From: an uncultured Fastidiosipila sp.
GTDB taxonomy: Bacteria > Bacillota > Clostridia > Saccharofermentanales > Fastidiosipilaceae
DNA: 64,000 nt
Direction of reading: 5' to 3'
NCBI GenBank assembly: GCA_947253875.1
Contig: CAMYAM010000006.1
Coordinates: forward strand, 34,604 to 98,603
In this document: positions 17,081-33,969 of the stretch, piece after piece
Numbering within the stretch: position 1 is the first letter of the stretch
How the letters are laid out: every line of letters starts with the position of its first letter
Translations under genes and position numbers: made by a program
Notes under the pieces: generated by a model
The model's database searches: none
What the model saw: the letters and a program-made list of their open reading frames with translations, nothing else
Told to the model about the DNA's origin: nothing

Positions 17081-19480
17081 ATGTTTAAATTAAATCACGA
17101 TAAATTCAATCCAATGGCAAGGGCTAATTCAGTAATTCAAGGCGACAAATATAGAATAACTGTTTTGAGCAAGAATTTACTCCGCTTCGAGTATCAAGAA
17201 GATGGAAATTTTCAAGATGAAGTTACCACAATGGTAATCAACAGAGATTTCCCAGAAGTAGAGTTTAAAACCTACAGAAAAGACGGACTTCTATATGTTG
17301 ATACTGGCGATTTGTTGCTCAGTTATGATGAAGAAGAACCTACAGCATATGGCTTACAAATAAGAGTTCTAAGTAGTGCAGTTAACTGGAACTATGGTAA
17401 ACAAGAAGACGGTAATCTCGGTGGTACAGCAAGGACTCTTGATACAATAGATGGTGCTGTAGATGTTGGTCGTGGTGTGATTTCAAGATCTGGTTATGTA
17501 GTCATTGATGATGCTAATTCTGCAATGATTGATGGTGATGGTTGGTTCCAAGCTTCAGATAACGCTAGAGTCGATCTTTATTTCTTTGGACATGGTAGAG
17601 ATTACCAAGGGGCAATTGATGATTTCTATAGATTGTCAGGTCCTACACCATTATTGCCCAGGTTTGTTTTTGGTAACTGGTGGAGCCGCTACCATAGATA
17701 TGATGAAGAAGAGTATATGGACTTGATGCAGAAGTTTGCTGACAAAGACATTCCTTTATCTGTTGCAGTTATCGATATGGACTGGCATATTACCGAAGTT
17801 GAGCCGCAATATTTGACCGGTTGGACAGGTTATACCTGGAATCAAGACTTGTTCCCAGATCCAGAGAGATTCCTGGCTAAGCTCCATGATTTAGGACTCA
17901 AGACAACTTTAAACGTGCACCCAGCGGAGGGTATAAGACCTTTTGAAGTTCAGTATGACAACATGTGTAAACGTCTTGGCAAAAATCCAGCAGATGATGA
18001 AATAATTGAGTTTGATTTCACAGATCAGGATTTTGTCGAAGCGTATTTTGAAGAGATTAATCATCGTTATGAAGAGATTGGTGTAGATTTTTGGTGGATT
18101 GATTGGCAACAAGGTACAGTTTCTAGAATGGAAGGCTTAGATCCGTTATGGGCGCTTAACCATTTCTATTACTTGGATAGTTGCAAATCTGAATTTATTG
18201 ATAATGAAGCTGGTGAAAGAGGATTAACTTTCTCACGTTATGCTGGCTTAGGAAGTCATAGGTATCCTGTTGGATTCTCAGGCGATACAGTTATAAGTTG
18301 GGAGAGTTTAGATTTCCAACCTTACTTCACTGCTACTGCAAGTAATGTAGGCTACACTTGGTGGAGTCACGATGTTGGCGGTCACTTCTTAGGGGTCAAG
18401 AATGACGAACTTACATCACGTTGGGTACAGTACTCTGTATTTTCTCCAATATTCAGATTGCATAGTAGTGATAATCCGTTTATGTCCAAAGAACCTTGGA
18501 ACTATAGTGAGCCGTTTGAGACAATTATTTCTGAGTCAATGCGTTTGAGACAAAGGTTGATTCCATATCTCTACACAATGAACTATAGAACTGCCTTGGA
18601 AAACAAAGCCATAGTAATGCCAATGTACTACGTTCATCCGGAGAAAGAAGCAGCTTATCAGGTGCCAAATGAGTATTATTTCGGTTCAGAATTAATTGCT
18701 TGTCCAATAACTAGTCCAATAGATCCGGAAACTCAAGTGGCTAAATTCTCAGTTTGGTTACCAGAAGGTGAGTACTTTGATATCTTTAACCACCGTTGCT
18801 ATGAGGGTGATAAGAATATAAATGTCTATAGAAATATTTATGATATCCCTGTGTTTGCCAAAGCAGGTGCGATTTTACCATTAGATAATGCAGAGAAGTT
18901 AGAAAATGGTACTGCAAATCCAGAGAATTTATTGTTAAAAGTATTTACTGGTGCAGACGGAGAGTTCAACTTAATTGAAGATAATTACGAGCTAATAGAC
19001 CCAAGTGAAAATGACTATGCATGTACAGAGATTAAATATACCTACAACGATGGTGTGAATTCAGTTCTCTCAGTCGACTTAAGTGGTGATTTTGCTGCAA
19101 TCCCAGCAAATAGAAATATAACAGTAGAGTTAGTTGGTGTGAGCGATACAGATGTATATCTAAATGGTGAATTAATCAAAAATACAGAATACAAAGCAGA
19201 TAGACAAAGTTTGCTAGTTAATCTTGGACAGATTGGTAATGAAGCATTTGAGCTAGTATTTACTAATAGCAAAATAGCAGAAGTTTCTGATGAATCTGCG
19301 TTAGAAGATGTGTTCAATATTCTTAATAGAATGCAAATCGATAATGAAATGAAACGTAGAATTTTCAACGAATATAGACGTAATGGTAATAGCAATAAGA
19401 CTTTGAGCAATCTCTATGCAAGTAACGCAGACCAAAAAGTTATAGATGTTCTGGCAGAGTTGTTTTACGCAGGAATTTAA
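17081..19480 (+). CDS. GH31-family glycoside hydrolase (alpha-glucosidase/alpha-xylosidase-like), cytoplasmic
   Basis: 799 aa with GH31-like N-terminal beta-sandwich and TIM-barrel segment (FWWIDWQQG, GFSGDT…). Start at ATG 17081 after gagggcgaggg. The ORF-track start is TTG 17066. Confidence 0.65.
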   Translation: MFKLNHDKFNPMARANSVIQGDKYRITVLSKNLLRFEYQEDGNFQDEVTTMVINRDFPEVEFKTYRKDGLLYVDTGDLLLSYDEEEPTAYGLQIRVLSSAVNWNYGKQEDGNLGGTARTLDTIDGAVDVGRGVISRSGYVVIDDANSAMIDGDGWFQASDNARVDLYFFGHGRDYQGAIDDFYRLSGPTPLLPRFVFGNWWSRYHRYDEEEYMDLMQKFADKDIPLSVAVIDMDWHITEVEPQYLTGWTGYTWNQDLFPDPERFLAKLHDLGLKTTLNVHPAEGIRPFEVQYDNMCKRLGKNPADDEIIEFDFTDQDFVEAYFEEINHRYEEIGVDFWWIDWQQGTVSRMEGLDPLWALNHFYYLDSCKSEFIDNEAGERGLTFSRYAGLGSHRYPVGFSGDTVISWESLDFQPYFTATASNVGYTWWSHDVGGHFLGVKNDELTSRWVQYSVFSPIFRLHSSDNPFMSKEPWNYSEPFETIISESMRLRQRLIPYLYTMNYRTALENKAIVMPMYYVHPEKEAAYQVPNEYYFGSELIACPITSPIDPETQVAKFSVWLPEGEYFDIFNHRCYEGDKNINVYRNIYDIPVFAKAGAILPLDNAEKLENGTANPENLLLKVFTGADGEFNLIEDNYELIDPSENDYACTEIKYTYNDGVNSVLSVDLSGDFAAIPANRNITVELVGVSDTDVYLNGELIKNTEYKADRQSLLVNLGQIGNEAFELVFTNSKIAEVSDESALEDVFNILNRMQIDNEMKRRIFNEYRRNGNSNKTLSNLYASNADQKVIDVLAELFYAGI

Positions 19481-19638
19481 CAGGGACTTAGTTAGAAAAC
19501 AAGGAGTTAGTTAGAAAAAATATTTTCTGTTATACTAGCTTTTACCAAGTAAAGATATTATTTAAAGTGCTCTTAGATAACTGTGGCTTAATAGATTGGC
19601 TGCAGATGATTTAGGAGCATCTTTAGTTAGGAGACAAA

Positions 19639-20601
19639 ATGGAAAAAACGAAGATGAATACAAATGAAGTTATGAGTGAGCAAAATCAGTCAAAAGGAAG
19701 ACGCAAAGCTAGTCTAGGATACTTGAAAATTTTGTTGGCAGGTATGATCTGGGGTACAGGTGGTTACTATGTTATGCAGATGAATAGGCTTGGTGGTGAT
19801 CCGACCATAACTGCATTTACTAATCATATTTTTGCCCTGATTCCAATTGCTATAGTTATGCTAATTACTAGAGGAAAAGAAGCGTTCAAGATTTCTAAGC
19901 AAGGTTTAATTTTTGCCATAATTATGGGTGTTTTTACCAAGGCACTATTTAAGCTGGCCTATGACACCTCAGTTAGTCAGGTCGGACAGAGCACAGGTGC
20001 AGTCTTACTTTATACAGCTCCGATATTTATTGCGATTATGTCAGTAGTTTTCTTGAAAGAGAAAATTAGACTCACTAATTATGTAGCTTTAGCACTTAAT
20101 CTAGTTGGTGTATTTCTAATGGTAACTGGTGGTAATATACATGAGTTGAATTTACAACCTTTGGGAGTGATTTTAGGAATTACAGCAGCAGCTTTACACG
20201 CCTTGAATACTATTCTTGGCAGGTTAGTAGGTAAAGGCGATAACCCACTTACTACAAGTTTTTACATGTTATTGTCTAGTAGTATATTTTTAATCTTTTT
20301 CGCAAAACCTTGGCAAGCAGAAACTATTGCATTGCTAAAAGACGGTAAGTTCTTATTCTGGGCTTTGGTTAGTTCTTTCTTAACTGGAGCAGCAGCTAAT
20401 ATGTTGTATCTAGGTGGTTTATCCCATGACATCGATACTTCCAAAGCTCCTATATTCTCATCTATTGAGGTTATTATTGCTGTCTTAATGGGAGTAGTAT
20501 TGTTAAACGAGAGTATTAATTTGGTTGGAATCTTTGGTATTTTTCTAATGGTGATTTCGATTCTTTTAATGAATCTTAAGAAAAGTAAGTCAGTTGAATA
20601 A
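19639..20601 (+). CDS. EamA/DMT-family transporter (paralogue 1)
   Basis: 10-TM protein with two EamA-like halves. N-terminus MEKTKM… parallels the paralogue at 22171. RBS aggaga. Confidence 0.7.
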   Translation: MEKTKMNTNEVMSEQNQSKGRRKASLGYLKILLAGMIWGTGGYYVMQMNRLGGDPTITAFTNHIFALIPIAIVMLITRGKEAFKISKQGLIFAIIMGVFTKALFKLAYDTSVSQVGQSTGAVLLYTAPIFIAIMSVVFLKEKIRLTNYVALALNLVGVFLMVTGGNIHELNLQPLGVILGITAAALHALNTILGRLVGKGDNPLTTSFYMLLSSSIFLIFFAKPWQAETIALLKDGKFLFWALVSSFLTGAAANMLYLGGLSHDIDTSKAPIFSSIEVIIAVLMGVVLLNESINLVGIFGIFLMVISILLMNLKKSKSVE

Positions 20602-20762
20602 TTAGGGTCTCTAAACCAAAGAATTGAATAATAGGAAAAATTTTTAGACTGAAATATTTAAATAAACTGCTATAGTTTATAATGCATGAAAATTTTATGT
20701 GATAAGTTGTAAAATAAAGTGCGATAGAAATAAAAAATACAAATAAAAATAGGAGGACAAGT

Positions 20763-22037
20763 ATGGTAAAGAAATTTATAAATGCAGTAATTTACAGACA
20801 TCCAGAAGCTAATGAAATTTTGGTAGAAGATGGTAAATTTAAAAAAATTGGTACTAATCTTGGAGAAGCAGATGAGATCATTGATTTAGAAGGCAAATTT
20901 GTATTGCCACCTTATGTAGACTCACACTTGCATTTAGATTATGTGTATACACTCAGTGATATGGCTGAGATTGGTGCATCTTCAGGTACTTTATTCGAAG
21001 CTATAGAGTTATGGCCAAAATACAAGAACCAAAGAATGACCATGGATAGTGTTAAACGTCTAGCTAAGAAAGGTATTCTTGATGAAGTTTCTCAAGGTAC
21101 ACAATATATTAGAGCTCAAACAGACGTAACTGATCCAGAATTCAAAGGCCTAAAAGCTATGCTTGAACTCAAAGAAGAAATGAAAGATATTGTTGATATT
21201 CAAGTTGTAGCTTTCCCACAAAATGGTATGTACGCTTACAGAACTGAAGATGGTGTAATTGGTAGAGACTTAGTTGAAGAAGCTCTGAAAATGGGTGCAG
21301 ACGTTGTCGGTGGTATTCCACACTATGAACCAGCAAGAGAATTCGGCGAAAAATCTGTTCACGATATTGTTAACTTAGCTGTTAAATATGATAAATTAAT
21401 CGACTCTCATACAGACGAAACAGATGACGATCAAGCTAGATTTGTTGAGTTGCTCAATGCTTTAGCCTGGATGGAAGGTATAGGCGAGAAGACGACTGCT
21501 TCCCATGTGGTTTCATTTGGTAAAAATAATAATGCCTACGTTTATAGAATGTTAGACTGGTTCAAGAAATCAGGTATTAATATTGTTTCTAACCCTACAG
21601 AAAATGCATATCTTCAAGGGCGCTTAGATACAGAAAATAAGTTCAGAGGTATTACGAGAATTAAGGATTTAACAGAAGCAGGAGTAAACGTATCATTCGG
21701 ACAAGATTCCATTAATGACGCTTGGTACCCAATGGGTAGCGGTAACTTGATGAACGTCCTAGATAACGGTATTCACCTAGCTCAAACAATGAGTCACGCA
21801 GAAGTTGATAGAGCTTTTGACTACATTACTTATAATGGTGCTAAGACTTTACATATTCATAATGAATACGGCATTGAAGTTGGCAAGAGAGCAAACTTTG
21901 TTGTTCTAGATGGAGATAGTGCCTGGGATTCAATTAGAAGAAGAGTTCAAGTATTGGCATCTGTTCGTGATGGTGAATTCTTGTTCAAGAAGAAAGCCAC
22001 AGAGTATGATGTAGCTTTGGATATGGATAGATTCTAG
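20763..22037 (+). CDS. CodA-family amidohydrolase paralogue (cytosine-deaminase-like, altered active site)
   Basis: PPYVDSHLHLD, SHTDETDD, AFPQNG and IEVGKRANFVVL all align to CodA. The CodA FGHDDxxDPWYP loop reads FGQDSINDAWYP and SHTTAM reads SHVVSF. RBS aggagga. Confidence 0.75.
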   Translation: MVKKFINAVIYRHPEANEILVEDGKFKKIGTNLGEADEIIDLEGKFVLPPYVDSHLHLDYVYTLSDMAEIGASSGTLFEAIELWPKYKNQRMTMDSVKRLAKKGILDEVSQGTQYIRAQTDVTDPEFKGLKAMLELKEEMKDIVDIQVVAFPQNGMYAYRTEDGVIGRDLVEEALKMGADVVGGIPHYEPAREFGEKSVHDIVNLAVKYDKLIDSHTDETDDDQARFVELLNALAWMEGIGEKTTASHVVSFGKNNNAYVYRMLDWFKKSGINIVSNPTENAYLQGRLDTENKFRGITRIKDLTEAGVNVSFGQDSINDAWYPMGSGNLMNVLDNGIHLAQTMSHAEVDRAFDYITYNGAKTLHIHNEYGIEVGKRANFVVLDGDSAWDSIRRRVQVLASVRDGEFLFKKKATEYDVALDMDRF

Positions 22038-23255: not shown

Positions 23256-23639
23256 ATGCAAGATAATTATAATAATTTTAATAATAATCAATATTCTAAT
23301 AATAGTGGATTTTATCCAGGCTATGCCGTAAACAATGGAGTCTCATACTTTGACGGCGGACTGTTTGAGTTGGTAGTATTACGCATTATAGGGACAATAG
23401 TTACAGTGTTAAGTTTAGGTATATTGTTACCATGGGCTTATTGTAGGGTATATAGCTGGGAGGCAAAGCATACAGTAATTGACGGAAGAAGATTAGCGTT
23501 TACAGGAAGTGCAGTAGGTCTCTTTGGGCAATGGATTAAATGGCTAATTTTATCTTTCATAACCTTTGGTATTTATGGTTTCTGGGTAAATATTAAATTG
23601 AAAAAATGGAGAACTAAACACACTCACTTTGTGAATTAA
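23256..23639 (+). CDS. DUF898/YjgN-like small membrane protein
   Basis: Asn/Tyr-rich N-terminus followed by two TM helices and a KKWRTKHTHF tail. RBS aaggaga. 66-nt gap with no terminator before the next gene. Confidence 0.5.
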   Translation: MQDNYNNFNNNQYSNNSGFYPGYAVNNGVSYFDGGLFELVVLRIIGTIVTVLSLGILLPWAYCRVYSWEAKHTVIDGRRLAFTGSAVGLFGQWIKWLILSFITFGIYGFWVNIKLKKWRTKHTHFVN

Positions 23640-23705: not shown

Positions 23706-26420
23706 ATGGTCAGGGAAAATATTGCACTAGGTATAATCGCTCACGTTGATGCGGGCAAGACAACTCTGTCTGAATCTATCCTTTATCATGCTGGAGTAAT
23801 TAGGGAAAAAGGTCGTGTTGATCATGGTGATGCACATCTAGATACGGATCATCTGGAGAGACAGCGAGGAATTACCATTTATTCTAAACAGGCATTTTTT
23901 CAACTAAGTAATAAGGACTTTTATCTCTTAGATACACCTGGGCACGTTGACTTTACTACCGAGATGGAGAGAGTCCTGTTCGTCCTGGACTACTGCATCT
24001 TGATAATTAGTGCACCAGAATCTGTTAGTCCCAAGGTCAAAGATCTATGGGAGCTTCTAAAATACTATCAAGTGCCAACTTTTATTTTTGTCAATAAAAT
24101 GGATCAAGATGGCATGGATAGAGACAAAATTTTTGCAGAAATACAGACTGAATTAGGTAGTAGGTGCATTGCCTTCCCTGATGATCTCGGAAATTTCACT
24201 GATGAGCAATGGGAAGATATTGCAGTCAATGACGAGCTTTTGCTAGAGAAATATCTGGAAGCAAAAGCAATAGAAGTACAAGACATTGCTAGACTTATCA
24301 AAGAACGTAAACTTTTCCCAGTGTACTTCGGTTCTGCACTAAAAGAGTTAGGCATAGAGACTTTCTTAAATGCCATGAAAAGTTACATGAAGCCTAGAGA
24401 ATATCCACGAGAGTTTGGCGCACGAGTATTTAAGATTAGTCGAGATGAGCAAAATGCTAGATTGACCTGGATGAAAATTACTGGTGGTAGACTTGAGACC
24501 AAGAAGAATCTTGAATATCCTGCTTTAACTAATGATAGTGCTGAGAATCAGGATGAGTCAGAGCAGAACAAATTGATTAGCGAGAAAGTCGAGCAAATCA
24601 GAGTCTATTCAGGCACTAAATATGAAGCAATCCAAACTGCAGAAGCTGGTGCAGTCGTTGCGGTAACTGGATTAAAAGATTCATATATAGGTTTAGATAT
24701 TGGTGGAGAACAAGAACGTTTAAATGCTACCAATAGTCCAGTTTTAAAATACAAAATAATTCTTACGGATGGAGAAGATGCTTATAGAGCACTTAAGTTG
24801 TTGAGGACATTTGAAGATCAAGATCCATCACTTAATTTCCAGTATGAGCAAAGAACACAAGAAATAACTGTCAATATTATGGGGCAGGTGCAGATGGAGA
24901 CCTTGCAGAGTAGAGCTCAAGAAGAGTTTAATTTAGCAATTGACTTCTCTGATCCGGATGTAATTTACAAAGAAACTATAAGAGAACCTGTATTTGGTAT
25001 TGGGCACTTCGAACCACTGCGACATTACGCTGAAGTAATTGTGAAACTAGAACCATTAGAGAGAGGTAGTGGGATAGTTATAGAGAATCAGTGCTCTAGA
25101 GATACACTCAAGGCTAATTGGCAGAGTTTAATTCTCTCAACTCTCAAAAGTAAACGACACAAGGGTGTACTGACTGGTAGTGACCTCACGGATGTGAAAA
25201 TCACTCTAATGCATGGTATTGCTCATGAGAAACATACTTCAAGTGGGGACTTCAAGCAGGCAAGTATTCGTGCTGTAAGACAAGCCTTGATGCAGGCTGA
25301 ATCTATTTTGCTAGAACCAATGTATGAATTGAACTTGAACATTCCTCAGAATTACTTGGGCAAAGTCATGACAGAAATTGACCTCTTAGGTGGAACTTTG
25401 GATGCACCTGAAATAGAGGGAGATTTTGCTACGGTTAAGGGCAGTATTCCTGCGAGAAATTTAGGAGAGTTTACCAGAGACCTGCAAGCATATACTGGAG
25501 ATGAAGCTAGAATTTCTTTCAAGTTAGGGGGATACTCTGAGTTAAAAGCTGCGGAGTCAATAGTTGAAGCGCATAATTATGACCCAGAAGCAGACTTGAA
25601 CAACCCTGTAGATTCTGTCTTTTGTGCGAATGGAGCAGGATTTATTGTGCCATGGGATGAGGTGGAAGAGTTTTTCCACTCTAAAGATAAACTTAGAGAA
25701 TTCAAGCTGGCTGAGTTAAATGACAAGGATTTTTCAAAGTCATATCCAACTACAAATATCATACGAAATCCATTGCAAGGTACCTCAAAAGAAGCTGGTA
25801 TAGATCACGCTGAGCGTCAAAGGCGTATAGTCAAAGAGGATAGTGAACTTAAACAGATTTTCGAAAGGACCTACGGAGCAGTAGATAAGCCAAAGAAAAG
25901 ACCCGAGCGAAGAGAAAATAAGCCGGCAAAAACTGCTGCAAGAAATTTCAACGATAAAGAGAAAGCTGCCTTAGCTAATAAACTTAATGAAGGCCGAAAG
26001 TCTTATCTTTTAGTTGATGGATATAATGTTTTGCATGCTTTGCCAGAACTTAAGAAATTATCTGAGACTGATATCAATGCTGCTCGAGACAAGTTAATTG
26101 ACATTCTTATAAACTACCAAGGCTTCAGGTCGGAGAAGGTCATCTTAGTATTCAATGCCTACAAGGTCAGAGGTGGTCGAGAGAGTGTTGAAGATTACTC
26201 CGGACTATCCGTTGTCTACACCAAAGAAGCCGAAACAGCAGATAAGTATATTGAACGAGCTACTCATGAAAAAGTTAAGCAAAACGCTATTGTTAGGGTT
26301 GCTAGCTCTGATGCCTTGGAGCAGGCGATTGTGTTTGGTGCAGGAGCCTTGCGTATGTCAGCAAGAGAGTTCTGGCTGCATATTGCTTCTGTTGAAGATG
26401 AGATTAGAGAGATGTTGTAG
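23706..26420 (+). CDS. Translational GTPase (EF-G/TetM-like ribosome-binding) fused to C-terminal NYN (YacP/Rae1-type) ribonuclease domain
   Basis: N-terminal 640 aa: G1 AHVDAGKTTL, DTPGH, NKMD, then EF-G/TetM-like domains II-V. A Lys/Arg-rich linker follows. C-terminal 150 aa align with B. subtilis YacP/Rae1: LLVDGYNVLHA, VFNAYKV, ETADKYIE, VASSD, QAIVFGAGALRMSAREF. RBS aaaggatag. Confidence 0.8.
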   Translation: MVRENIALGIIAHVDAGKTTLSESILYHAGVIREKGRVDHGDAHLDTDHLERQRGITIYSKQAFFQLSNKDFYLLDTPGHVDFTTEMERVLFVLDYCILIISAPESVSPKVKDLWELLKYYQVPTFIFVNKMDQDGMDRDKIFAEIQTELGSRCIAFPDDLGNFTDEQWEDIAVNDELLLEKYLEAKAIEVQDIARLIKERKLFPVYFGSALKELGIETFLNAMKSYMKPREYPREFGARVFKISRDEQNARLTWMKITGGRLETKKNLEYPALTNDSAENQDESEQNKLISEKVEQIRVYSGTKYEAIQTAEAGAVVAVTGLKDSYIGLDIGGEQERLNATNSPVLKYKIILTDGEDAYRALKLLRTFEDQDPSLNFQYEQRTQEITVNIMGQVQMETLQSRAQEEFNLAIDFSDPDVIYKETIREPVFGIGHFEPLRHYAEVIVKLEPLERGSGIVIENQCSRDTLKANWQSLILSTLKSKRHKGVLTGSDLTDVKITLMHGIAHEKHTSSGDFKQASIRAVRQALMQAESILLEPMYELNLNIPQNYLGKVMTEIDLLGGTLDAPEIEGDFATVKGSIPARNLGEFTRDLQAYTGDEARISFKLGGYSELKAAESIVEAHNYDPEADLNNPVDSVFCANGAGFIVPWDEVEEFFHSKDKLREFKLAELNDKDFSKSYPTTNIIRNPLQGTSKEAGIDHAERQRRIVKEDSELKQIFERTYGAVDKPKKRPERRENKPAKTAARNFNDKEKAALANKLNEGRKSYLLVDGYNVLHALPELKKLSETDINAARDKLIDILINYQGFRSEKVILVFNAYKVRGGRESVEDYSGLSVVYTKEAETADKYIERATHEKVKQNAIVRVASSDALEQAIVFGAGALRMSAREFWLHIASVEDEIREML

Positions 26421-26457
26421 GGTGGAGACGTTTTCGTTCCACGCTCACTAAAAATTG

Positions 26458-26561
26458 AACAAAATAAAACTCCTCAAGTTTGAGGAGTTAAAATGCTCCA
26501 ACGAGCTACTGAAAAACAGCGATTTCCAAAAATTGTTATTTGAACTCGATGTGTATTTCTA
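26458..26561 (-). ncRNA. tracrRNA: Predicted tracrRNA of the type II-A system
   Basis: The minus-strand transcript would begin AGAAAUACACAUCGAGUUCAAAU, an imperfect anti-repeat to the first 22 nt of the CRISPR repeat. It gives a lower stem GUUUGA/UCAAAU, a bulge, and an upper stem GAUGUG/CACAUC plus UAUUUCU/AGAAAUA. The transcript ends in the hairpin aactcctcaaacttgaggagtt plus UUUUAUUUU. Confidence 0.7.
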
Positions 26562-26595
26562 TGTTTATTATTAAGCATAATTTTAATAATGTCAA
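26562..26595 (-). promoter_or_regulatory. Promoter for tracrRNA (TTGACA-N17-AATAAT on the minus strand)
   Basis: The reverse complement of 26567-26595 reads TTGACA ttattaaaattatgctt AATAAT. The predicted TSS falls at the anti-repeat. Confidence 0.55.
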
Positions 26596-26676
26596 GTTTG
26601 TTCTCTTGCATAAATTTCTAGTTAATATAAAATTAAAATTAGTGAAATTGACAAATAGAGTTTTGCGGAGGGTGAC

Positions 26677-29600
26677 ATGGCGAAAAAAGATAATAAAGTT
26701 CTCTTTAAATTCAATGAAGATAAAATGAAAAATGTAAAAGAATACTATCTAGGATTAGACATGGGTGTTGGTTCAGTTGGTTGGGCCGTTACTGATACTA
26801 ACTATAATGTTATTAAAAAATCTCAAAAGAGTTTATGGGGTTCTCGTTTATTCGAAGAAGCAGAAACTGCAGCAGGTAGAAGAACTTATAGATCTAGTAG
26901 ACGACGACTAAATAGAAGAAATCAAAGGATTAAACTTCTTCAAGAATATTTTGCTCCAGCTATTTCAAAAATAGATCCAGGTTTCTATATTAGATTAAAA
27001 GATAGTTTCTTCTATGAAGAAGATAAGACTGAGCAACAGAAAAATACTCTTTTTAATGATTCTAGTTTCACAGACAAAGATTATCACTTAGCGTATCCAA
27101 CTATTTACCATTTACGCAAAGAACTGATTGATAATCCTAAATATCATGATCCACGCTTAGTGTATTTAGCATGTGCTCATATACTTAAAAATAGAGGACA
27201 TTTCCTTTACGGTGCACAGAAATTTAATACCGAAGCTTTGTTAGAGGAAAGTATTAAAGACTTTAACGAGTTATATTATGAATACTTTGACATTAAATTA
27301 TTTAATGATGAAAAAATTTATGAGATTGAAAGCGCAATTCTTGAGAAAAATCTTAGCAGATCAGGTAGGGCTAAGACATTAGAAGGTCTATTGAATGATA
27401 AAGATAAAAGAGCTAAAAAGTATTGCAATCTGCTAGTTGGAAATTTGGCAAAGATAGAAGATCTTTTCCCAGAAGAGCTTGAAATAGAGGAAAGTCAAAG
27501 TAAACCTAAATTCTCTGAGGGTAATTATGATGAGCCTGATACTCAGGACTACTTACTGGAAAATCTGAATGAAGAACAACTAGCTATTGTTGATGAAGCA
27601 TATAAAATTTACAGCGCTGCAATTTTGCAAGATTTATTATCCAACAAGAGCGGTCACAAATTCAGCACAATTTCAGAAGCTAGAATTGATACTTATAATC
27701 AACATAAGAAAGATTTAAAGCTTCTTAAAGAAGTTGTGAAAGGGATTGAAAAAGAGAACCCTTCAGCCAAAGGTCTATACAACAAAATATTCAAAGAAAA
27801 CACAAAAAAGTATAAAAACTATGTTGCCTACTCAGGACATACCAGCTCTGATGATAAGAAAGAGAAAATAGGTGTCGAAGAAAAAACTTCATACGAAGAT
27901 TTCTCTAAGTTCCTAAAAAATAACTTGTCAAAATATGAAAAGCAAGATGAACGAATTGAAGAAATTATCGAACAACTTGATCTAAATAATTTTCTGCCTA
28001 AAATTACAACTACCGATAATGGTGTAATTCCTTATCAACTGCATCTAGATGAATTAGAGAAAATTCTTGATAATGCTAAAAAATACATTGAAGAATTAAA
28101 TGAGAAAAAAGCTGATGAAATTAAACAGATATTTACATTTAGGATACCTTACTATGTAGGACCTTTTGACACAAGGTCAGAATTTTCATGGATAAAGAGA
28201 GAAAGTTTCGAATCAATTAGGCCTTGGAATTTCAATGAAGTTGTTGATTTAGACTTGAGTTCAGAACGTTTTATTAAAGAAATGACCAATAAATGTACTT
28301 ACTTGATAGGTGAAGATGTTCTGGCGAAAAATTCAATCCTTTATTCAGAGTACATGATTAGAAATCAGCTCAATACATTAAATTACGTAAGTCCTGTGAC
28401 TAAAGACATTAAACGTTTTGACCATGAGACAATAGAATATTTGTATGAAAAGTTATTCGTTGAGAATACAAGTGTAAGAGTAACTAAAAAAGCTATAGCT
28501 AATACATTGAAGAACTATAATTCAATTTTCGCTGATATTACAAGTGATTCAATTGGAGGTATGGATTTAGAAATACCTCATAAATTAAAGGCACTACAAG
28601 ATTTCAATAGAATATGTTCTGGAAAACTTAACAATAAAGAAATAGATAAGATTGTAGAGAAGATAACAGTATTCCCTGATGACAGTGAAATGGTGGCTAG
28701 ATTTATTCGCAAGGAAGAATTCTCTGACAAACTGACAGAGGAAGAAATCAAAAAGCTCTCTCGCTTAAGATATACAGATTGGGCTCCATTGTCTGAAAAG
28801 TTTTTAACCGGTATTAAAACAGAATTAAATAATGGAAGAAAATACAGCATAATCGATATATTACGAAAAAATCCATTAAATCCAAATAGTCCATTGAATC
28901 TAATGCAGATTATCAATTTAAAAGAATTTAATTTTTCTGAATTAATTGAAGAGCATAACCTTGGTGAAACAAATGATCCTTATGTTGTAGATGAGGAGTT
29001 ACTAGACTCTCTAAGATTGTCTGCTCCTGTAAGAAGGTCAATTAATCAAACTCTATTAGTATGCGAAGATATTTTCAAGATTATGGGTGGAACGCCTAAG
29101 AAAATATTTGTCGAAATGACAAGGTCAGAAGGTGAAAAGGGCAAGAGAACCACTTCTAGAAAAAAACAGATTGAAAAATTATATGAAAGTATAAAAACAG
29201 ATCTTAAGGATTGGTATTCAATTTGGAAAGATAAATTAAAGAGTATTGATGATAGTGAATATCAAGCAAAAAGTATTTATCTATATGCGATGCAGGCGGG
29301 TAGAGATATGTATAGTGGACAGGTTATAGATGAACCTCGCAATCTAGAGGCTTATGATATTGACCATATTTATCCAAGATCAAAGACCAAGGATGATAGC
29401 TGGAATAACTTAGTTCTTGTATCCAAGAAATCTAATGCGATGAAAGGGGACAAGGTATTATCTGAAGAAATTCAGAATAAAAATAAAGACTACTGGCAGA
29501 TGTTATTAGATAAAGGCTTCATGAGTGAAGAGAAATATAGACGCTTAACTAGAAAAACTGAGCTAGATGGTGAAGAGTTAAGATCATTTGTTAACAGACA

Positions 29601-30831
29601 AATTGTAGAGACTGGTCAATCTACCAAGGCAATTACAACTATCTTTAATAGAATTTTACCAGAGTCAAAATTGGTATTTGTCAAAGCAAATCTAGTCTCA
29701 GATTTTAGATATAACGATGGTAAAAAATCTAAGGTTATTTCAGATCTAAACTTCCCTAAAGTTAGAGATCTAAATAGTTATCACCATGCTAAAGATGCCT
29801 ACTTAAATATTGTCGTAGGTAATGTTTATGATACTAAATTTACTGAAGGATTCTTCGAAAGTCTGAGAAACAAAGAACATCCTAAATATAACTTAGAAAG
29901 AATTTATGACAAAAATATAGCTGACAAAAATGGTGAACTGGTTTGGATTGCTGGCGAGAATGGTACAGTTGCAACTGTTAAGAAGTTCATGAACAGGAAT
30001 AATATTTTTGTTACATACAGGACTTTCAAGAGAACAGGCAAACTTTACGATGTTAATTTAAATAAGAAAGGTAGCGGTCAATATCCTATAAAAACTTCGG
30101 ATAAAAGACTTATGAACTTAGATAAATATGGTGGTTACAATGGTACTAAGGGAAGTCATTATTGTTTAGCAAAAATTAAAAAAGGTAAAAAGATTGAGTA
30201 TAAATTATTAACAGTACCAATGATTTTTGAAAATAGGAAAAGTATAAATGGTGAAACTTTAATTGAATATTATAAAAATCAAGGAGAAAATATTGCTGAA
30301 ATTGTAACTGATGATATAAAGATTAATACGATACTAGAAATTGAAGAAAATTTATATAGAATACAGAGCGATCATGATAAAAGTAGAATTATTTCGCCTG
30401 AATATTGTGTAGCTCATTATGGATTAAAGGAAGAAAAAATTATAAAAGATATTGAGAGAATTACATTAGGCAAAACAATAAGGAACGATATAAATGATAA
30501 AGTCTTGGATGATATTTATGATGGAATTAGATTAAAGTTAAACTCTGAAAAATTAAAAAAATATAGTTTCTATGAAGAATTGAATAACGATATGTTAGAT
30601 AATAAAGGTATATTTAATAAATTAACTATTAAAGAAAAATGTGAATGTATTATGAAAATAGTACAAATTATTAGTGGTATTAATCAAGAAACAGATTTAA
30701 GAATGATAAATTTGAAGAAAACAATAGGGAGAAAGGCTAGAAGTAGAACAATTAAAGGGAATAAATTACGTATCCTACACCAATCACCAACAGGATTCTA
30801 TAGTAGTTGGGAAGAGGTGAGTTTGGAGTAG
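26677..30831 (+). CDS. cas9: Cas9, type II-A (1384 aa)
   Basis: RuvC-I YYLGLDMGVGSVGWAV, arginine-rich bridge helix, HNH (DIDHIYPRSKTKDDSWNNLVLVSKKSNAMK), RuvC-III (HHAKDAYL). RBS ggaggg 5 nt before ATG 26677. An alternative ATG at 26725 is closer to the canonical Cas9 N-terminus. Confidence 0.93.
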   Translation: MAKKDNKVLFKFNEDKMKNVKEYYLGLDMGVGSVGWAVTDTNYNVIKKSQKSLWGSRLFEEAETAAGRRTYRSSRRRLNRRNQRIKLLQEYFAPAISKIDPGFYIRLKDSFFYEEDKTEQQKNTLFNDSSFTDKDYHLAYPTIYHLRKELIDNPKYHDPRLVYLACAHILKNRGHFLYGAQKFNTEALLEESIKDFNELYYEYFDIKLFNDEKIYEIESAILEKNLSRSGRAKTLEGLLNDKDKRAKKYCNLLVGNLAKIEDLFPEELEIEESQSKPKFSEGNYDEPDTQDYLLENLNEEQLAIVDEAYKIYSAAILQDLLSNKSGHKFSTISEARIDTYNQHKKDLKLLKEVVKGIEKENPSAKGLYNKIFKENTKKYKNYVAYSGHTSSDDKKEKIGVEEKTSYEDFSKFLKNNLSKYEKQDERIEEIIEQLDLNNFLPKITTTDNGVIPYQLHLDELEKILDNAKKYIEELNEKKADEIKQIFTFRIPYYVGPFDTRSEFSWIKRESFESIRPWNFNEVVDLDLSSERFIKEMTNKCTYLIGEDVLAKNSILYSEYMIRNQLNTLNYVSPVTKDIKRFDHETIEYLYEKLFVENTSVRVTKKAIANTLKNYNSIFADITSDSIGGMDLEIPHKLKALQDFNRICSGKLNNKEIDKIVEKITVFPDDSEMVARFIRKEEFSDKLTEEEIKKLSRLRYTDWAPLSEKFLTGIKTELNNGRKYSIIDILRKNPLNPNSPLNLMQIINLKEFNFSELIEEHNLGETNDPYVVDEELLDSLRLSAPVRRSINQTLLVCEDIFKIMGGTPKKIFVEMTRSEGEKGKRTTSRKKQIEKLYESIKTDLKDWYSIWKDKLKSIDDSEYQAKSIYLYAMQAGRDMYSGQVIDEPRNLEAYDIDHIYPRSKTKDDSWNNLVLVSKKSNAMKGDKVLSEEIQNKNKDYWQMLLDKGFMSEEKYRRLTRKTELDGEELRSFVNRQIVETGQSTKAITTIFNRILPESKLVFVKANLVSDFRYNDGKKSKVISDLNFPKVRDLNSYHHAKDAYLNIVVGNVYDTKFTEGFFESLRNKEHPKYNLERIYDKNIADKNGELVWIAGENGTVATVKKFMNRNNIFVTYRTFKRTGKLYDVNLNKKGSGQYPIKTSDKRLMNLDKYGGYNGTKGSHYCLAKIKKGKKIEYKLLTVPMIFENRKSINGETLIEYYKNQGENIAEIVTDDIKINTILEIEENLYRIQSDHDKSRIISPEYCVAHYGLKEEKIIKDIERITLGKTIRNDINDKVLDDIYDGIRLKLNSEKLKKYSFYEELNNDMLDNKGIFNKLTIKEKCECIMKIVQIISGINQETDLRMINLKKTIGRKARSRTIKGNKLRILHQSPTGFYSSWEEVSLE

Positions 30832-30837
30832 TTTAAC

Positions 30838-31719
30838 ATGTCTTGGAGAACAGTATACATTAGTAATCACTGTAAACTTGAGTATCGTATGGGATACATG
30901 GTGATAAGGACAAAAGATATTAAGAGGATCCATATAAGCGAGATAGGTACTCTTTTAATTGATAGCACTGCTGTATCAATGACCACATCTTTAATTAACG
31001 AGCTAATTAAGGCTAAGGTTAAGCTCATATTTTGTGATGAAGCTCATAATCCAAGTGGTGAATTAGTGCCTTATTATGGTGCATATGATTCTAGTAGAGC
31101 TTTACGAAAACAATTAGCATGGTCAGAAGATATCAAGGGAAAGCTATGGCAAGCTATAGTTAGAGATAAAATACTAAAACAATCTCAACTATTATCGAGG
31201 CACAATCTATTGTCAGAGTCTGAATTAATTAAATCGTATATACCTTTTGTCGAACCAGGGGATGAAAGCAATAGGGAAGGACATGCTGCGAAAGTCTATT
31301 TTAATATCATATTTGGTCAAGATTTTGTAAGACATGAAGATGGAATAATTAATGCTGCCTTAGACTATGGATATTCATTATTGCTATCAAGTTTTAATAA
31401 AGAAGTTGTGGCAAAAGGTAGACTCACTCAGCTAGGTATATGGCATGATAACACCTTTAACTATTTCAATTTATCTTCAGACTTAATGGAAGCTTTTAGA
31501 CCGTTGATAGACAATTATATTCTCAATATGGGATTTGAAGATGGATCCGAATTAACTGTTGAAGACAAAATTAATCTAGTTGGAGTATTAGAGTCTGAAG
31601 TAATGATAAATGGAAGGATATTTAAACTTCCTGATGCAATCAAACTGTATGTAAATGAAGTAATGAAAGTTTTGGATAAAGAGGACATGGCTTATATGCC
31701 AGTTATAACTTATGGCTAG
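30838..31719 (+). CDS. cas1: Cas1 (type II)
   Basis: MSWRTVYISNHCKLEY…, typical type II Cas1 N-terminus and length. Immediately downstream of cas9. Confidence 0.9.
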   Translation: MSWRTVYISNHCKLEYRMGYMVIRTKDIKRIHISEIGTLLIDSTAVSMTTSLINELIKAKVKLIFCDEAHNPSGELVPYYGAYDSSRALRKQLAWSEDIKGKLWQAIVRDKILKQSQLLSRHNLLSESELIKSYIPFVEPGDESNREGHAAKVYFNIIFGQDFVRHEDGIINAALDYGYSLLLSSFNKEVVAKGRLTQLGIWHDNTFNYFNLSSDLMEAFRPLIDNYILNMGFEDGSELTVEDKINLVGVLESEVMINGRIFKLPDAIKLYVNEVMKVLDKEDMAYMPVITYG

Positions 31720-32029
31720 ATATATGAGAGTAATAGTGTTTTTTGATTTACCTTCAGTAACAAAGACGGATAAAAAAGAATACCTTAATTTTAGGAAGTT
31801 CTTAATAAATTCAGGATTTCAGATGATGCAAGAATCTGTTTATATAAAACTGACGCTGAACACTACTAGTGCAGATGTTGTAATTAAACAGATAAAGAAT
31901 AATAAGCCTAAAAAAGGTCTAGTCCAAGCAATGATAATCACCGAGAAACAATATTCAAGGATAGAGAATATTGTTGGAGAGGTAGAGAAAGAAGTACTCG
32001 ATACTGGTGATAGATTGGTAATTATATGA
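31712..32029 (+). CDS. cas2: Cas2
   Basis: (MARY)MRVIVFFDLPSVTKTDKKEYLNFRKFL, a Cas2 signature. Overlaps the cas1 stop. The true start may be ATG 31724. Confidence 0.88.
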   Translation: MARYMRVIVFFDLPSVTKTDKKEYLNFRKFLINSGFQMMQESVYIKLTLNTTSADVVIKQIKNNKPKKGLVQAMIITEKQYSRIENIVGEVEKEVLDTGDRLVII

Positions 32030-32724
32030 GTTATAGATTGATTTATAGTGATTTTGATAAGCCTATCCTTCTAGAAGAAGATAAGTTCACGGTCCTAAAA
32101 ATAGAAGACAAAGACATTTATTATAAGTTTTTAAAAGACTTGTACTCTCAATATAATCGAGGTGGTGAGTGTTTTAATTTATCCAAAAATAATAAGAGCT
32201 TGAGACTTGAGAAGGAATCTTTATGGATTAACAATTTATTTGATTTAGAAGTTAACTCTCGTACTAGATTAAGGAAACTCTATGCTGAGTTAGAACAAAA
32301 TATTAATCGTACAGAATTAAATGAAAAGGTTCTGAATCTATGGTTGAATATAGAGGAGCTTATAAATAATTATATTATCCTAGAAGGAAACTTAGAAAGC
32401 AAAGATGAGTTTCTAGGAATAGCTCCAATTCTTGAGCTTATGGGAGTTCAATTCTATGATGATTTCGATGAAAGCCTAATAGATAGATTAGAAAACTTTA
32501 TGATATTAAACAGAGATTATTCTAGCATTAAGCTTTTTGTATTAAATAATGCATCTAGTGTTTTAAATATAGAAGAGATTCAAGAGTTACAAATGTTCTC
32601 AAATAGAGAAGATATTAGTATTTTGTATTTAGATTCTGAATTTGATTTTAATACTTTAAGTAGTGGCTATAGAGGCTTAATTGTTGATGAAGATCTCTGT
32701 TATATAGAGATAACTGAACCTTGA
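32026..32724 (+). CDS. csn2: Csn2 (short form), type II-A signature protein
   Basis: 232-aa protein in the csn2 position, with 4-nt overlap with cas2. N-terminus MSYRLIYSDFDKPILLEEDKF is typical of the Csn2 family. Confidence 0.8.
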   Translation: MSYRLIYSDFDKPILLEEDKFTVLKIEDKDIYYKFLKDLYSQYNRGGECFNLSKNNKSLRLEKESLWINNLFDLEVNSRTRLRKLYAELEQNINRTELNEKVLNLWLNIEELINNYIILEGNLESKDEFLGIAPILELMGVQFYDDFDESLIDRLENFMILNRDYSSIKLFVLNNASSVLNIEEIQELQMFSNREDISILYLDSEFDFNTLSSGYRGLIVDEDLCYIEITEP

Positions 32725-32782
32725 AAATTTAATATAAGCTAGATATAATTACACTATTAGTTTTAACAATCTCTTATTTGAG
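32725..32782 (+). promoter_or_regulatory. CRISPR leader (AT-rich, between csn2 and first repeat)
   Basis: 58-bp AT-rich segment abutting repeat 1. The degenerate terminal repeat is at the far end, consistent with the leader being here. Confidence 0.6.
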
Positions 32783-33969
32783 GTTTGAGAGATGTGTTAT
32801 TTCTAATAGGTCTTAAACATCGCATTCTCCACTGAATCGCCTTTCGTAGTTTGAGAGATGTGTTATTTCTAATAGGTCTTAAACTAAGTTTATTTTGTAA
32901 TTGTCACGCTCTAAGTTTGAGAGATGTGTTATTTCTAATAGGTCTTAAACTCATTCTTTCTGGATCATCTAAGAAGGCTTTGTTTGAGAGATGTGTTATT
33001 TCTAATAGGTCTTAAACAGTACACCTTATGCTAGACGTCTATATTTGTTTGAGAGATGTGTTATTTCTAATAGGTCTTAAACTACAAAACTAAGTAAGCT
33101 ACTTGAAGCAGAGTTTGAGAGATGTGTTATTTCTAATAGGTCTTAAACAGCTGTTTTAAACGGATAATGAAAAAGATTGTTTGAGAGATGTGTTATTTCT
33201 AATAGGTCTTAAACGTAAGTGGTGTCTTGGTAGTGTTCGTTATAGTTTGAGAGATGTGTTATTTCTAATAGGTCTTAAACTTTATCTTTTACCACACCAT
33301 CTTTAAACATGTTTGAGAGATGTGTTATTTCTAATAGGTCTTAAACTTAATGAGTTAAAAGAGGGTGGCAGGAATCGTTTGAGAGATGTGTTATTTCTAA
33401 TAGGTCTTAAACTCTATAACTGAAATTAGAAGTTGGTCTTCTGTTTGAGAGATGTGTTATTTCTAATAGGTCTTAAACAATGGCAGGAATGCATACGTTA
33501 TGGAACTAGTTTGAGAGATGTGTTATTTCTAATAGGTCTTAAACCTTTAGCTTTAATTTGTTCTTGCATTTGGTGTTTGAGAGATGTGTTATTTCTAATA
33601 GGTCTTAAACTTGATAAGATGGGTCCAGCTGGTGCTGCAGGTTTGAGAGATGTGTTATTTCTAATAGGTCTTAAACTCACATCCAACTGACATAGGTCTT
33701 AAACTCACATCCAACTGACAATAGAAATTTTTTCTGTTTGAGAGATGTGTTATTTCTAATAGGTCTTAAACAGAGAGAGAGGGAGAGATAGATAAAAAGT
33801 CGTTTGAGAGATGTGTTATTTCTAATAGGTCTTAAACTCGTTGTATCCTGTTCTATCTATATGGTTTGTTTGAGAGATGTGTTATTTCTAGTAGGTCTTA
33901 AACTGGTTAATCTATCGGCTCGGTCTTGACCGTGTTTGAGAGATGTGTTATTTCTCACTTGGTTTCTCC
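32783..33969 (+). CRISPR. CRISPR array, 36-bp repeat GTTTGAGAGATGTGTTATTTCTAATAGGTCTTAAAC; 17 full repeats + degenerate terminal repeat; spacers 29-31 bp plus one aberrant 59-bp unit
   Basis: Repeat starts read at 32783, 32849, 32915, 32982, 33047, 33113, 33179, 33245, 33311, 33377, 33443, 33509, 33575, 33641, 33736, 33802 and 33868 (A-to-G variant ctaGtagg). The terminal repeat at 33934 matches only the first ~22 nt. Confidence 0.95.

Follow-up and report, generated by a model that had tools for sequence, protein, structure and literature searches.

The locus described here raises the question of what a translational GTPase, joined in a single polypeptide to a Rae1-type nuclease, does beside a CRISPR-Cas system. 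In the window (the whole 64,000-nucleotide stretch of Fastidiosipila sp. DNA that was analysed), the gene is an unbroken ORF with an ATG start codon, which an AAAGGA ribosome-binding site precedes by about 6 nt. Its 904-aa product is identical to a protein, designated P0001, that occurs in publicly available assemblies from the Fastidiosipila sanguinis lineage. Profile searches matched all of GTP_EFTU, EFG_III, EFG_IV, EFG_C and NYN_YacP, and together with the PDB matches they bore out the original prediction of a complete ribosome-binding GTPase (G domain and domains II to V) fused to a Rae1/YacP NYN domain. The intact GTPase is followed by a tether of about 95 residues and then by the C-terminal NYN_YacP domain, with the features located as follows:

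23706..26420, + strand: whole gene, 904-aa Tet/EF-G-like translational GTPase plus NYN_YacP (Rae1-type) nuclease (ORF, Pfam)
23706..24395, + strand: G domain, aa 1-230, with G1 AHVDAGKT, G2 RGITI, G3 DTPGH and G4 NKMD intact (Pfam GTP_EFTU)
24414..24710, + strand: domain II, aa 237-335, including an acidic insert of low conservation, aa 271-290 (weak EF-G_D2, AF2 beta-barrel)
24738..24947, + strand: domain III, aa 345-414 (Pfam EFG_III, E 2e-7)
24954..25301, + strand: domain IV, aa 417-532 (Pfam EFG_IV, E 5e-21; alignments to EF-G and Tet(O))
25308..25550, + strand: domain V, aa 535-615 (Pfam EFG_C, E 6e-14)
25551..25721, + strand: module specific to the subfamily, following domain V, aa 616-672, with NPxxSVFCxxGAGxxVPW (alignments, AF2)
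25722..26000, + strand: Lys/Arg-rich tether, aa 673-765 (stretches of AF2 pLDDT <50, composition)
26001..26414, + strand: NYN_YacP nuclease domain, aa 766-903 (Pfam, E 2.4e-45; PDB 5mq8/5mq9, E 8e-24)
26154..26156, + strand: codon 817, AAT (Asn), Asp in the family and aligned with Rae1 D53 (DNA read, alignments)

The G domain matched Pfam GTP_EFTU over aa 6-229 (E 8e-49) and contains the G1 to G4 motifs of a translational GTPase, including the catalytic His of DTPGH; the G-motif residues are invariant in the other full-length members having the column (67/67, with two gapped, or 69/69). Domains III, IV and V scored above their cut-offs and lie in the EF-G order, and the AF2 model of the protein has an EF-G-like five-domain fold that matched ribosome-bound EF-G structures in Foldseek (E 1e-49). 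Domain II gave a weak EF-G_D2 match over aa 237-325 (20.2 bits against a curated cut-off of 27), and its acidic insert, modelled with pLDDT below 50, is also the place in which the stop codon of the type strain falls. The best-conserved region of the family is domain IV (mean conservation 0.88-0.90), which retains the His aligned with His573 of Thermus thermophilus EF-G and has the tip loops GHFEPLRHY, 4 aa shorter than the EF-G counterpart, and AHEKHTSSGDF.

The solved structures closest to the N-terminal 610 aa were TetO (E 4e-82, the best full-length PDB match) and TetM (E 4e-80), followed by EF-G; GTPase length and domain layout are also like those of Tet(O)/Tet(M), and the best NCBIfam likeness was tet_protect. 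Several members of the family are named TetM/TetW/TetO/TetS-family proteins by NCBI, and Atkinson 2015 assigned the fusions to the Tet subfamily (PMC4342817), the suggestion, shared by some NCBI annotations, being that of a tetracycline ribosomal-protection protein with an acquired nuclease domain, i.e. an antibiotic-resistance determinant. We regard this as quite improbable, given that the scores fall far under the curated NCBIfam cut-offs (432 against 775 for tet_protect, NF012153; 320 against 1100 for tet_protect_M_W, NF033148; 269 against 1420 for NF012155) and that identity to Tet(O) is just 32-33%. The YSPVSTP segment of Tet domain IV is the loop that displaces tetracycline. In the fusion it is replaced by the conserved AHxKHTxxG: the Tet(O) segment YGLYYSPVSTPADFR aligns with HGIAHEKHTSSGDFK, which is conserved in the family as AHxKHTxxGDF. 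Further against a resistance determinant, domains IV and V give a slightly better score with EF-G than with Tet, and the gene is chromosomal, is set in non-mobile contexts and occurs family-wide. The EF-G cut-offs were not reached either (284.5 against 659.4 for TIGR00484; 329 against 583 for NF009381), the similarity to EF-G is split into two stretches around aa 160-170, and the GGRGQ tip loop of EF-G domain IV is missing, GHFEP----LRHY standing opposite GKFIRQTGGRGQY with a 4-residue deletion. By the curated cut-offs, this GTPase falls outside both the Tet protection proteins and EF-G.

Careful examination of the region after domain V revealed a module (aa 616-672) with invariant S637, F639, C640, G643, G645, W650 and H658, modelled by AF2 as a helix, a hairpin and further helices. 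About 19 of its residues are missing from Tet(O), so that the fusion differs from Tet(O)/Tet(M) by a 19-aa insert at this point, in addition to the domain IV loop and the nuclease domain, which Tet proteins lack. The same module is present in an unfused sister GTPase from Bacilli, encoded on Ligilactobacillus salivarius megaplasmids (WP_049770576.1, 644 aa), which is 43% identical over aa 4-660, carries the GHFEPLRHY and SVFCAHGAG..W motifs of the subfamily, and stops just past the module with neither tether nor NYN domain. The Lys/Arg-rich linker of the original prediction was confirmed, K and R making up 26% of aa 660-765 compared with 13% of the whole protein. Within the tether, disorder is predicted at aa 673-700 and 726-753 (AF2 pLDDT <50), with one conserved helix at aa 701-723 (ELxxIFERTYG). 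Across all 70 members of the family, a spacer of 86-155 aa separates W650 from D771; at 120 aa, compared with a family median of 96, that of the 904-aa protein is longer and its tether more basic than usual. The AF2 model has a pTM of 0.46, at which the relative position of the NYN domain is not reliable.

The C-terminal domain passed the NYN profile search with ease, matching NYN_YacP (PF05991) over aa 768-902 with 155 bits against a gathering score of 24.6, and it aligned with residues 3-136 of Bacillus subtilis YacP/Rae1 (5mq8/5mq9). It has the GYN that follows the first Asp (LLVDGYN), a motif defined in PMC5499597, and shares the fold and the motifs LLVDGYN, ETAD, SSD and GxGA with Rae1; every motif quoted for this domain in the original prediction is present in the translation. 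By this likeness, ribosome-dependent action would be likely for the fusion as well. Several differences from Rae1 were also found. Rae1 is a free protein (solved chain of 181 residues), whereas the NYN domain of the fusion is tethered to a factor-site GTPase. Moreover, only positions 1-136 of the 166 in the NYN_YacP profile are covered, the last ~30 (~137-166), corresponding to the basic C-terminal helices, being absent from the clade of the protein. The protein ends 18 aa past GAGALRMSA, whereas in most of the remaining family the tail is 35-62 aa long; tail lengths are bimodal in the family, and the Fastidiosipila clade of the gene, together with about a quarter of the family, belongs to the short class without the long Rae1 C-terminal tail.

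The original prediction left it undecided whether this architecture had been catalogued. It has: the GTPase/NYN_YacP fusion was already recorded as a Clostridial feature with no role assigned (Atkinson 2015, PMC4342817; Matelska 2017, PMC5499597), and a literature search for experiments on any member of the fusion family found none. Being a single polypeptide from Clostridia with the same domain order, the present protein is a member of this family, in which it forms a divergent Fastidiosipila branch distinguished by its short C-terminal tail, its longer and more basic tether and an Asn in place of the invariant Asp817. Identity is about 90% within its own lineage, 54-55% to one homologue and 49% or less to the other members; many members outside the lineage fall at 40-55% over nearly the full length. 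At 50% identity the family falls into at least 150 clusters, nearly all of 800-1,160 aa and most of them aligning end-to-end with the query, and at least 590 relatives were confirmed in a one-genome-per-species collection, the best 80 of which all span domain IV through NYN and come from Lachnospiraceae, Oscillospiraceae, Ruminococcus and others. The family is large and vertically inherited, its members being chromosomal proteins of gut Clostridia with a distinct Tet/EF-G-like GTPase. A widespread housekeeping protein with a known function unrelated to RNA cleavage had been named as the finding that would undo the original prediction; the family is indeed widespread and housekeeping-like, but no such function is known for it. 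In 69 other species the P-loop Lys, the switch I Thr, the DTPGH His and NKxD of the GTPase are invariant (the few missing entries are gapped columns), as are D771, D846 and D869 of the NYN domain, gapped columns aside. Judged by these alignments, selection is acting on the GTPase and nuclease activities alike across the family, and since the catalytic residues of both are invariant, a ribosome-targeted nuclease would be the natural reading of the fusion.

The neighbourhood of the gene bears on a further possibility, and it contains:

23256..23639, + strand: small protein of 127 aa, matching DUF898 and DUF4234 in part, with a gap of 66 nt to the gene (Pfam)
26460..26595, - strand: type II-A system, probable tracrRNA unit (promoter-like site, anti-repeat-like region, terminator)
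26677..33955, + strand: type II-A CRISPR-Cas, with cas9, cas1, cas2, csn2 and a 36-nt-repeat array (Pfam, array detection)
34205-36007: ABC-transporter gene on the far side of the CRISPR slot

The original prediction had set the gene between a DUF898 membrane-protein gene, at a gap of 66 nt without terminator, and a tracrRNA/cas9 locus. The gap was confirmed, with no terminator-like site in it, and an upstream gene is present, but its DUF898 match is only partial, as is that to DUF4234; this gene is conserved in the Fastidiosipila lineage only and is absent from the neighbourhoods in other species. On the downstream side, cas9-cas1-cas2-csn2 and the array were found as described, and the probable tracrRNA unit is consistent with the claim: it has a promoter-like site at bp 26595-26567 and a hairpin with a T-run terminator at bp 26489-26468, while an Rfam search of the region gave no match.

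From this position it had been proposed that the protein is an anti-phage or abortive-infection effector of a defence island, the GTPase bringing the nuclease to ribosomes upon infection and so stopping translation. The gene does border a defence hotspot, since it abuts type II-A CRISPR-Cas here and a type I restriction-modification system in relatives, and a role in defence fits the speculation in a preprint that Rae1 could act on stalling phage mRNAs (PMC13622287). Nevertheless, we consider such an effector very improbable. Close Fastidiosipila relatives, about 90% identical, carry the restriction-modification system, and not CRISPR-Cas, in the slot that follows the gene, and both flanks are conserved (the ABC transporter beyond the slot is 81% identical to its counterpart in a relative); since the defence cargo is swapped while the gene stays, the gene belongs to the conserved flank. 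The comparison of 71 loci from other species, which looked for recurring neighbour genes, found no conserved neighbour, defence-related or other, and the three loci read gene by gene were all housekeeping in context (PolC/AhpC; CCA-adding enzyme/folate genes; purC/desulfoferrodoxin). No PADLOC model was matched by the fusion protein at E up to 0.01, the sole "phage" records carrying the gene are UNVERIFIED contigs with housekeeping genes, and the at least 590 matches in the one-genome-per-species collection are unlike the patchy spread expected of a defence gene. Recurrent association with defence genes across lineages was thus not found in the loci compared, the adjacency being seen in Fastidiosipila only. 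The CRISPR adjacency is local and accidental, and the fusion protein does not belong to the CRISPR-Cas system next to it; the original prediction is weakened on its defence side, while its core is not refuted.

A second premise of that prediction, namely that Rae1 is an A-site nuclease, has been superseded. Rae1 needs translation, and its discoverers have given up the A-site model, now reporting a cut at the tail of stalled ribosomes, 12 nt upstream of the A site (PMC12407103); it acts on collisions, generating tmRNA substrates (PMC13622287). The NYN domain of the fusion would likewise not be expected in the A site, because domain IV would occupy it and no family member has a spacer below 86 aa. 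We regard it as somewhat probable, by analogy with Rae1, that the fusion is a self-targeting Rae1, i.e. a housekeeping-type mRNA/ribosome surveillance factor for stalled or collided ribosomes. By homology to EF-G and TetM, the GTPase body in its GTP form would dock at the ribosomal factor site with domain IV at the decoding centre. Binding would presumably be preferred on ribosomes that can go no further, whether these have stalled with the A site accessible or have collided and are stuck in the pre-translocation state. From the cut position of Rae1, the NYN domain, on its tether of 86-155 aa and outside the A site, would then cut mRNA at the ribosome boundary or the inter-ribosome junction. 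Finally, GTP hydrolysis would free the factor, and the shortened mRNA would pass to trans-translation and decay, as in the published Rae1-tmRNA 'CART' pathway. The substrate, the stall preference and the GTP dependence of the fusion are in this scheme inferred.

A different substrate is also conceivable: the protein could be a ribosome-directed RNase acting on rRNA or tRNA instead of mRNA, in ribosome maturation, in quality control of defective ribosomes or in stress inactivation/turnover, with the GTPase probing the functional state of the ribosome. Before the work on Rae1, the operon shared with mrnC and rlmB had led to the prediction that NYN_YacP functions in rRNA/tRNA processing (PMC5499597), which favours such a substrate. 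The tether would also let the nuclease get to rRNA elements close to the factor site, and the gene of the unfused L. salivarius sister GTPase adjoins rpsN (S14). Ribosome biogenesis involves other EF-G-type GTPases, such as BipA and LepA. No linkage to rRNA/tRNA-processing genes was found in the 71 loci, and we consider an rRNA or tRNA substrate unlikely.

The surveillance reading can be taken one step further, as a tentative possibility by which the EF-G-like GTPase would sense a non-translocating (collided or stalled) ribosome from the factor site and leash the NYN domain at the inter-ribosome mRNA, making the fusion a one-protein sensor and effector of bacterial no-go decay; the unfused Lactobacillales sister would then work in trans with free Rae1. 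The logic is that of the collision nucleases SmrB of Escherichia coli and Cue2 of yeast and of the mRNA-decay GTPases Hbs1/Ski7/GTPBP1, i.e. to recognise ribosomes that have stalled or collided, to cut or degrade their mRNA and to pass it to rescue. These, however, have unrelated folds or are separate polypeptides, and none of them joins an EF-G-type GTPase covalently to a nuclease. If true, the fusion would be a natural 'Rosetta stone' for the way in which Rae1-type nucleases find their target. Ribosome recognition by Rae1 is transient, and there is as yet no structure of ribosome-bound Rae1 (PMC13622287); since ribosomes can be made to retain a locked GTPase, the fusion would offer structural work a means of capturing a Rae1-type domain in its ribosome-bound state.

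Whether the copy in the window itself still cuts RNA is a separate matter, on which codon 817 bears. Position 817 is Asp in 16/16 other aligned homologues and in 69/69 other species, so that in VFNAYKV, one of the motifs quoted in the original prediction, the Asn sits where the family has an invariant Asp. As to the catalytic aspartates, by which the original prediction was to be judged, the D817N allele has three, D771, D846 and D869, of the four that correspond to Rae1 D7, D53, D81 and D104, whereas the family as a whole has all. For NYN_YacP the predicted number of Asp residues in use is at least four (PMC5499597), which would favour an allele that is decaying or nuclease-dead, D817N crippling metal binding and leaving at most a ribosome-binding, non-cutting GTPase. 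Such a state, compatible with any functional model of the family, appears somewhat unlikely to us. The gene in the Fastidiosipila lineage shows signs of relaxed or negative selection: besides D817N, an in-frame TAG interrupts the copy of the type strain, which is of the same species, at about codon 286, one allele carries G772R, and other truncated gene calls are present in the 90% cluster. From the first three of these, the function may be dispensable in this organism, and from its sequence the nuclease may be weakened or inactive in this strain. Against decay, the reading frame of the gene is fully intact, and D771 and D846, the equivalents of Rae1 D7 and D81, are retained, the published catalytic-dead Rae1 being D7N D81N. 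Asn can, moreover, sometimes still coordinate metal. Within the 90% cluster, Asn817 occurs only in P0001 and P0125, on at least 6 contigs, which makes a sequencing error unlikely and indicates that the allele persists in a lineage.

The ORF at 23706-26420 (+ strand) encodes a 904-aa protein, for which the original prediction of a translational GTPase fused to a Rae1-type NYN domain was borne out by Pfam searches, matches to solved structures, a structural model and a Foldseek comparison.

Pfam domains of the 904-aa protein
aa 6-229, GTP_EFTU, E 8e-49
aa 237-325, EF-G_D2, weak match under the cut-off
aa 345-414, EFG_III, E 2e-7
aa 417-532, EFG_IV, E 5e-21
aa 535-615, EFG_C, E 6e-14
aa 768-902, NYN_YacP, E 2.4e-45

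Over approximately the first 610 residues, the nearest solved structures were TetO and TetM, followed by EF-G, and that of the C-terminal domain was B. subtilis YacP/Rae1 (5mq8/5mq9; E 8e-24). The GTPase motifs AHVDAGKT, RGITI, DTPGH and NKMD were all intact. An AlphaFold2 model made from 17 family sequences (mean pLDDT 72) contained five EF-G-like domains, all folded, a small folded module following domain V (aa 616-672), regions of predicted disorder at 673-700 and 726-753 flanking one conserved helix (701-723), and a folded NYN domain (aa 766-903); Foldseek matched the model to ribosome-bound EF-G with an E value of 1e-49. The linker was, as expected, rich in Lys and Arg (26% K+R). Because the pTM was 0.46 and the tether is disordered, the position of the NYN domain relative to the GTPase body cannot be read from the model, and the inter-domain placement is not interpretable.

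The GTPase part was compared with curated models of the two families to which it is nearest.

Scores of the GTPase part against curated models
tet_protect, score 432, cut-off 775
tet_protect_M_W, score 320, cut-off 1100
EF-G (TIGR00484), score 284, cut-off 659

Judged by these cut-offs, the GTPase part is neither a Tet protection protein nor an EF-G. It was 32-33% identical to Tet(O), had AHEKHTSSG in place of the domain IV loop YSPVSTP, and carried about 19 extra residues past domain V. Compared with EF-G, the GGRGQ-bearing loop of domain IV was four residues shorter, whereas a His aligned with His573 of Thermus thermophilus EF-G was kept. Membership in the Tet protection group was therefore rejected, since neither the scores against the curated models nor the sequence of the domain IV loop supports it or the tetracycline-resistance label that fusion proteins frequently carry. 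An unfused sister GTPase of 644 aa, annotated as a Tet-family protection protein, was located in Ligilactobacillus salivarius pHN3 (GenBank:NC_017499.1; bp 5983-7917 of its locus). It was 43% identical to the window protein over residues 4-660, had the motifs GHFEPLRHY and SVFCAHGAG..W in common with the fusion family, and stopped just past the post-V module. The GTPase part thus represents a distinct subfamily that occurs with and without the nuclease. The unfused gene is conserved on L. salivarius megaplasmids, where its transcription diverges from that of an rpsN (S14) gene and of a gene for a "putative metal homeostasis protein"; its annotation as a resistance gene may be wrong.

Among 1.84 billion representative proteins, at least 150 clusters at 50% identity matched the query; nearly all of those listed were 800-1,160 aa long, most aligned with it between residues 5 and 900 or thereabouts, and the 150th cluster still scored 570 bits. 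Scanning one genome per species gave at least 590 confirmed relatives, the best 80 of which all covered domain IV through the NYN domain and included Butyrivibrio, Blautia, Dorea, Roseburia, Coprococcus and Lachnospira, together with Oscillibacter, Lawsonibacter, Dysosmobacter, Ruminococcus, Eubacterium and others. The fusion is very widespread and occurs in Lachnospiraceae and Oscillospiraceae, which are dominant families in the gut. A protein identical to that of the window, and others sharing about 90% identity with it, belonged to Fastidiosipila sanguinis and its close kin (Clostridia).

In an alignment of the window protein with 69 other full-length members, each from a different species, the P-loop Lys and Thr, the switch I Thr, the Asp, Gly and His of DTPGH, and NKxD were invariant in these 69 wherever a residue was present. 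The same held for the NYN aspartates corresponding to D7, D53, D81 and D104 of Rae1; the window protein itself, however, has Asn at the D53 site. The most highly conserved stretch was domain IV (mean column identity 0.88-0.90). These invariant residues, and the conservation of domain IV, indicate purifying selection on the GTPase and nuclease activities alike, and on the region that in EF-G extends to the decoding centre. In every member, a spacer of 86-155 aa separated the invariant Trp650 from the first NYN Asp. The C-terminal tail past the NYN core was bimodal in length, being 17-27 aa in about a quarter of the family (window protein included) and 35-62 aa with a KNYLLDG..EE motif in the remainder, which suggests two sub-types, maybe with different RNA or ribosome contacts. 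In a metagenomic homologue of 1040 aa (P0008), about 120 internal residues, comprising the last part of domain IV and some of domain V, were duplicated in tandem and showed as a large insertion in the family alignment; the duplication may be genuine or an artefact of assembly.

The architecture is already known, having been noticed twice (PMC4342817, PMC5499597), and no functional study of the fusion was found in the literature searched. The model for Rae1 has been revised since those two papers: this Gram-positive nuclease was recently shown to cleave the mRNA of ribosomes that have stalled or collided, feeding trans-translation, and according to a 2026 preprint makes tmRNA substrates on collided ribosomes (PMC13622287). 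The authors of the preprint state that the mode of ribosome recognition by Rae1 is unknown and that there is no ribosome-bound structure. The fusion family combines a complete, conserved factor-site GTPase with a conserved NYN nuclease through an obligatory long tether, and has no partner genes. By homology, the GTPase would bind the ribosomal factor site and place domain IV at the decoding centre, which would keep the NYN domain out of the A site. A ribosome-targeted nuclease is a reasonable idea. Delivery of the nuclease to the A site, as first proposed, is without support, since domain IV would be there and Rae1 is now reported to cut 12 nt upstream of the A site (PMC12407103). The NYN domain would instead reach mRNA some way off, at the edge of the ribosome or where two collided ribosomes meet, a position that coincides with the reported cut site of free Rae1; GTP hydrolysis would set the timing of release, and the cut mRNA would pass to trans-translation. 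Judging from sequence, the substrate of the fusion may alternatively be rRNA or tRNA. A natural fusion of the Rae1 nuclease to a factor-site GTPase provides a concrete hypothesis, open to test, of how the nuclease is recruited and what GTP does, as well as a possible experimental handle on Rae1; its main value is in pointing to a very common, unstudied protein of gut bacteria that bears on how Rae1 reaches ribosomes.

Codon 817 in the window is AAT (Asn), whereas Asp was present in all 69 other species and in the nearest relatives of the window protein. Within the 90% cluster, Asn817 was confined to two proteins, one identical to the window protein (P0001) and a second homologue (P0125), on at least six contigs. 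Position 817 aligns with Rae1 D53. A survey of the PIN superfamily predicted at least four Asp in the NYN_YacP active site (PMC5499597), and the catalytically dead Rae1 in later papers of its original group is D7N D81N; the counterparts of D7 and D81 are both kept in the window protein. In the F. sanguinis type strain (GenBank:CP027226; bp 9131-11845 of its locus), an in-frame TAG replaced the GAG of the window at about codon 286, and the split gene was annotated as two products of 285 and 614 aa; being a substitution and not an indel, this stop is unlikely to be a sequencing artefact. Another allele of the cluster carried G772R in the GYN motif. Further gene calls of 540 aa in the same cluster hint at more N-terminally disrupted alleles. 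In contrast to the strict conservation in the family at large, these alleles suggest that selection is relaxed or negative in the Fastidiosipila lineage, and the natural D817N and nonsense alleles suggest that the function is dispensable or costly there. The window protein is a divergent member of the family, with a nuclease that is possibly crippled.

The placement of the gene had been likened to that of a defence island, and its surroundings were compared with those in relatives.

Genes around the fusion gene, and the slot between it and the ABC-transporter gene
Upstream, PTS EIIC gene, GH31 glycosidase, two EamA transporters, amidohydrolase, small protein with partial DUF898 similarity
Downstream, probable tracrRNA (- strand), cas9-cas1-cas2-csn2, array of 36-nt repeats, then ABC transporter
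Slot in the window, 26421-34204, type II-A CRISPR-Cas
Slot in the relative about 90% identical (L001), 12716-21670, type I restriction-modification, integrase, second hsdS
Slot in the F. sanguinis type strain (L092), 11846-21845, truncated hsdM, five unknown genes, hsdM-hsdS-DUF3800-hsdR

In the relative about 90% identical, both flanks matched the window (ABC transporter 81% identical), and the type I system with its integrase and second hsdS looks like a phase-variable specificity shufflon. The slot is a variable defence hotspot. Since the flanks are constant and the content of the slot varies among relatives, the fusion gene lies on the conserved flank and is not hotspot cargo, and no functional link is to be read from its proximity to CRISPR. 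Three distant contexts inspected gene by gene were housekeeping.

Distant contexts of the fusion gene
Context 1, PolC and AhpC
Context 2, CCA-adding enzyme and folate genes
Context 3, purC, desulfoferrodoxin and tRNA methyltransferase

When the four neighbours on each side were clustered by similarity over 71 loci, no conserved partner gene emerged; the largest clusters, of 7 members, consisted of generic transporters or regulators and were scattered in position over 5-7 loci. A PADLOC search with the fusion protein gave no matching model. The defence reading was rejected on the basis of the two relatives, the distant contexts, the clustered loci and PADLOC.

Carriage by phage was considered for two records from human faeces with a full-length fusion gene (GenBank:MT835563.1 and MT835514.1), which are unannotated and labelled "UNVERIFIED: Bacteriophage sp.". 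The one inspected encodes NAD(P)H-hydrate dehydratase, DAP epimerase and a peptidoglycan-binding protein, housekeeping genes that make it look bacterial, and both are probably bacterial DNA labelled phage in error. Carriage by plasmid was likewise rejected, as the full fusion occurred only on two very large replicons (517 kb in Monoglobus and 252 kb in Agathobacter), which does not amount to evidence that it is mobile.

One further element lies between the fusion gene and cas9.

26460-26595, - strand, probable tracrRNA unit

A promoter-like TTGACA-17-AATAAT, a hairpin followed by a T-run terminator, and one stretch able to pair in part with the CRISPR repeat make this unit a probable tracrRNA; an Rfam search around the fusion gene for tracrRNA or any structured RNA gave no match. 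The CRISPR array (32783-33955) appeared to be split into a block at 32783-33677 and another at 33735-33955, the junction between them being irregular, and a 28-nt segment including the repeat end was duplicated at 33664-33720.
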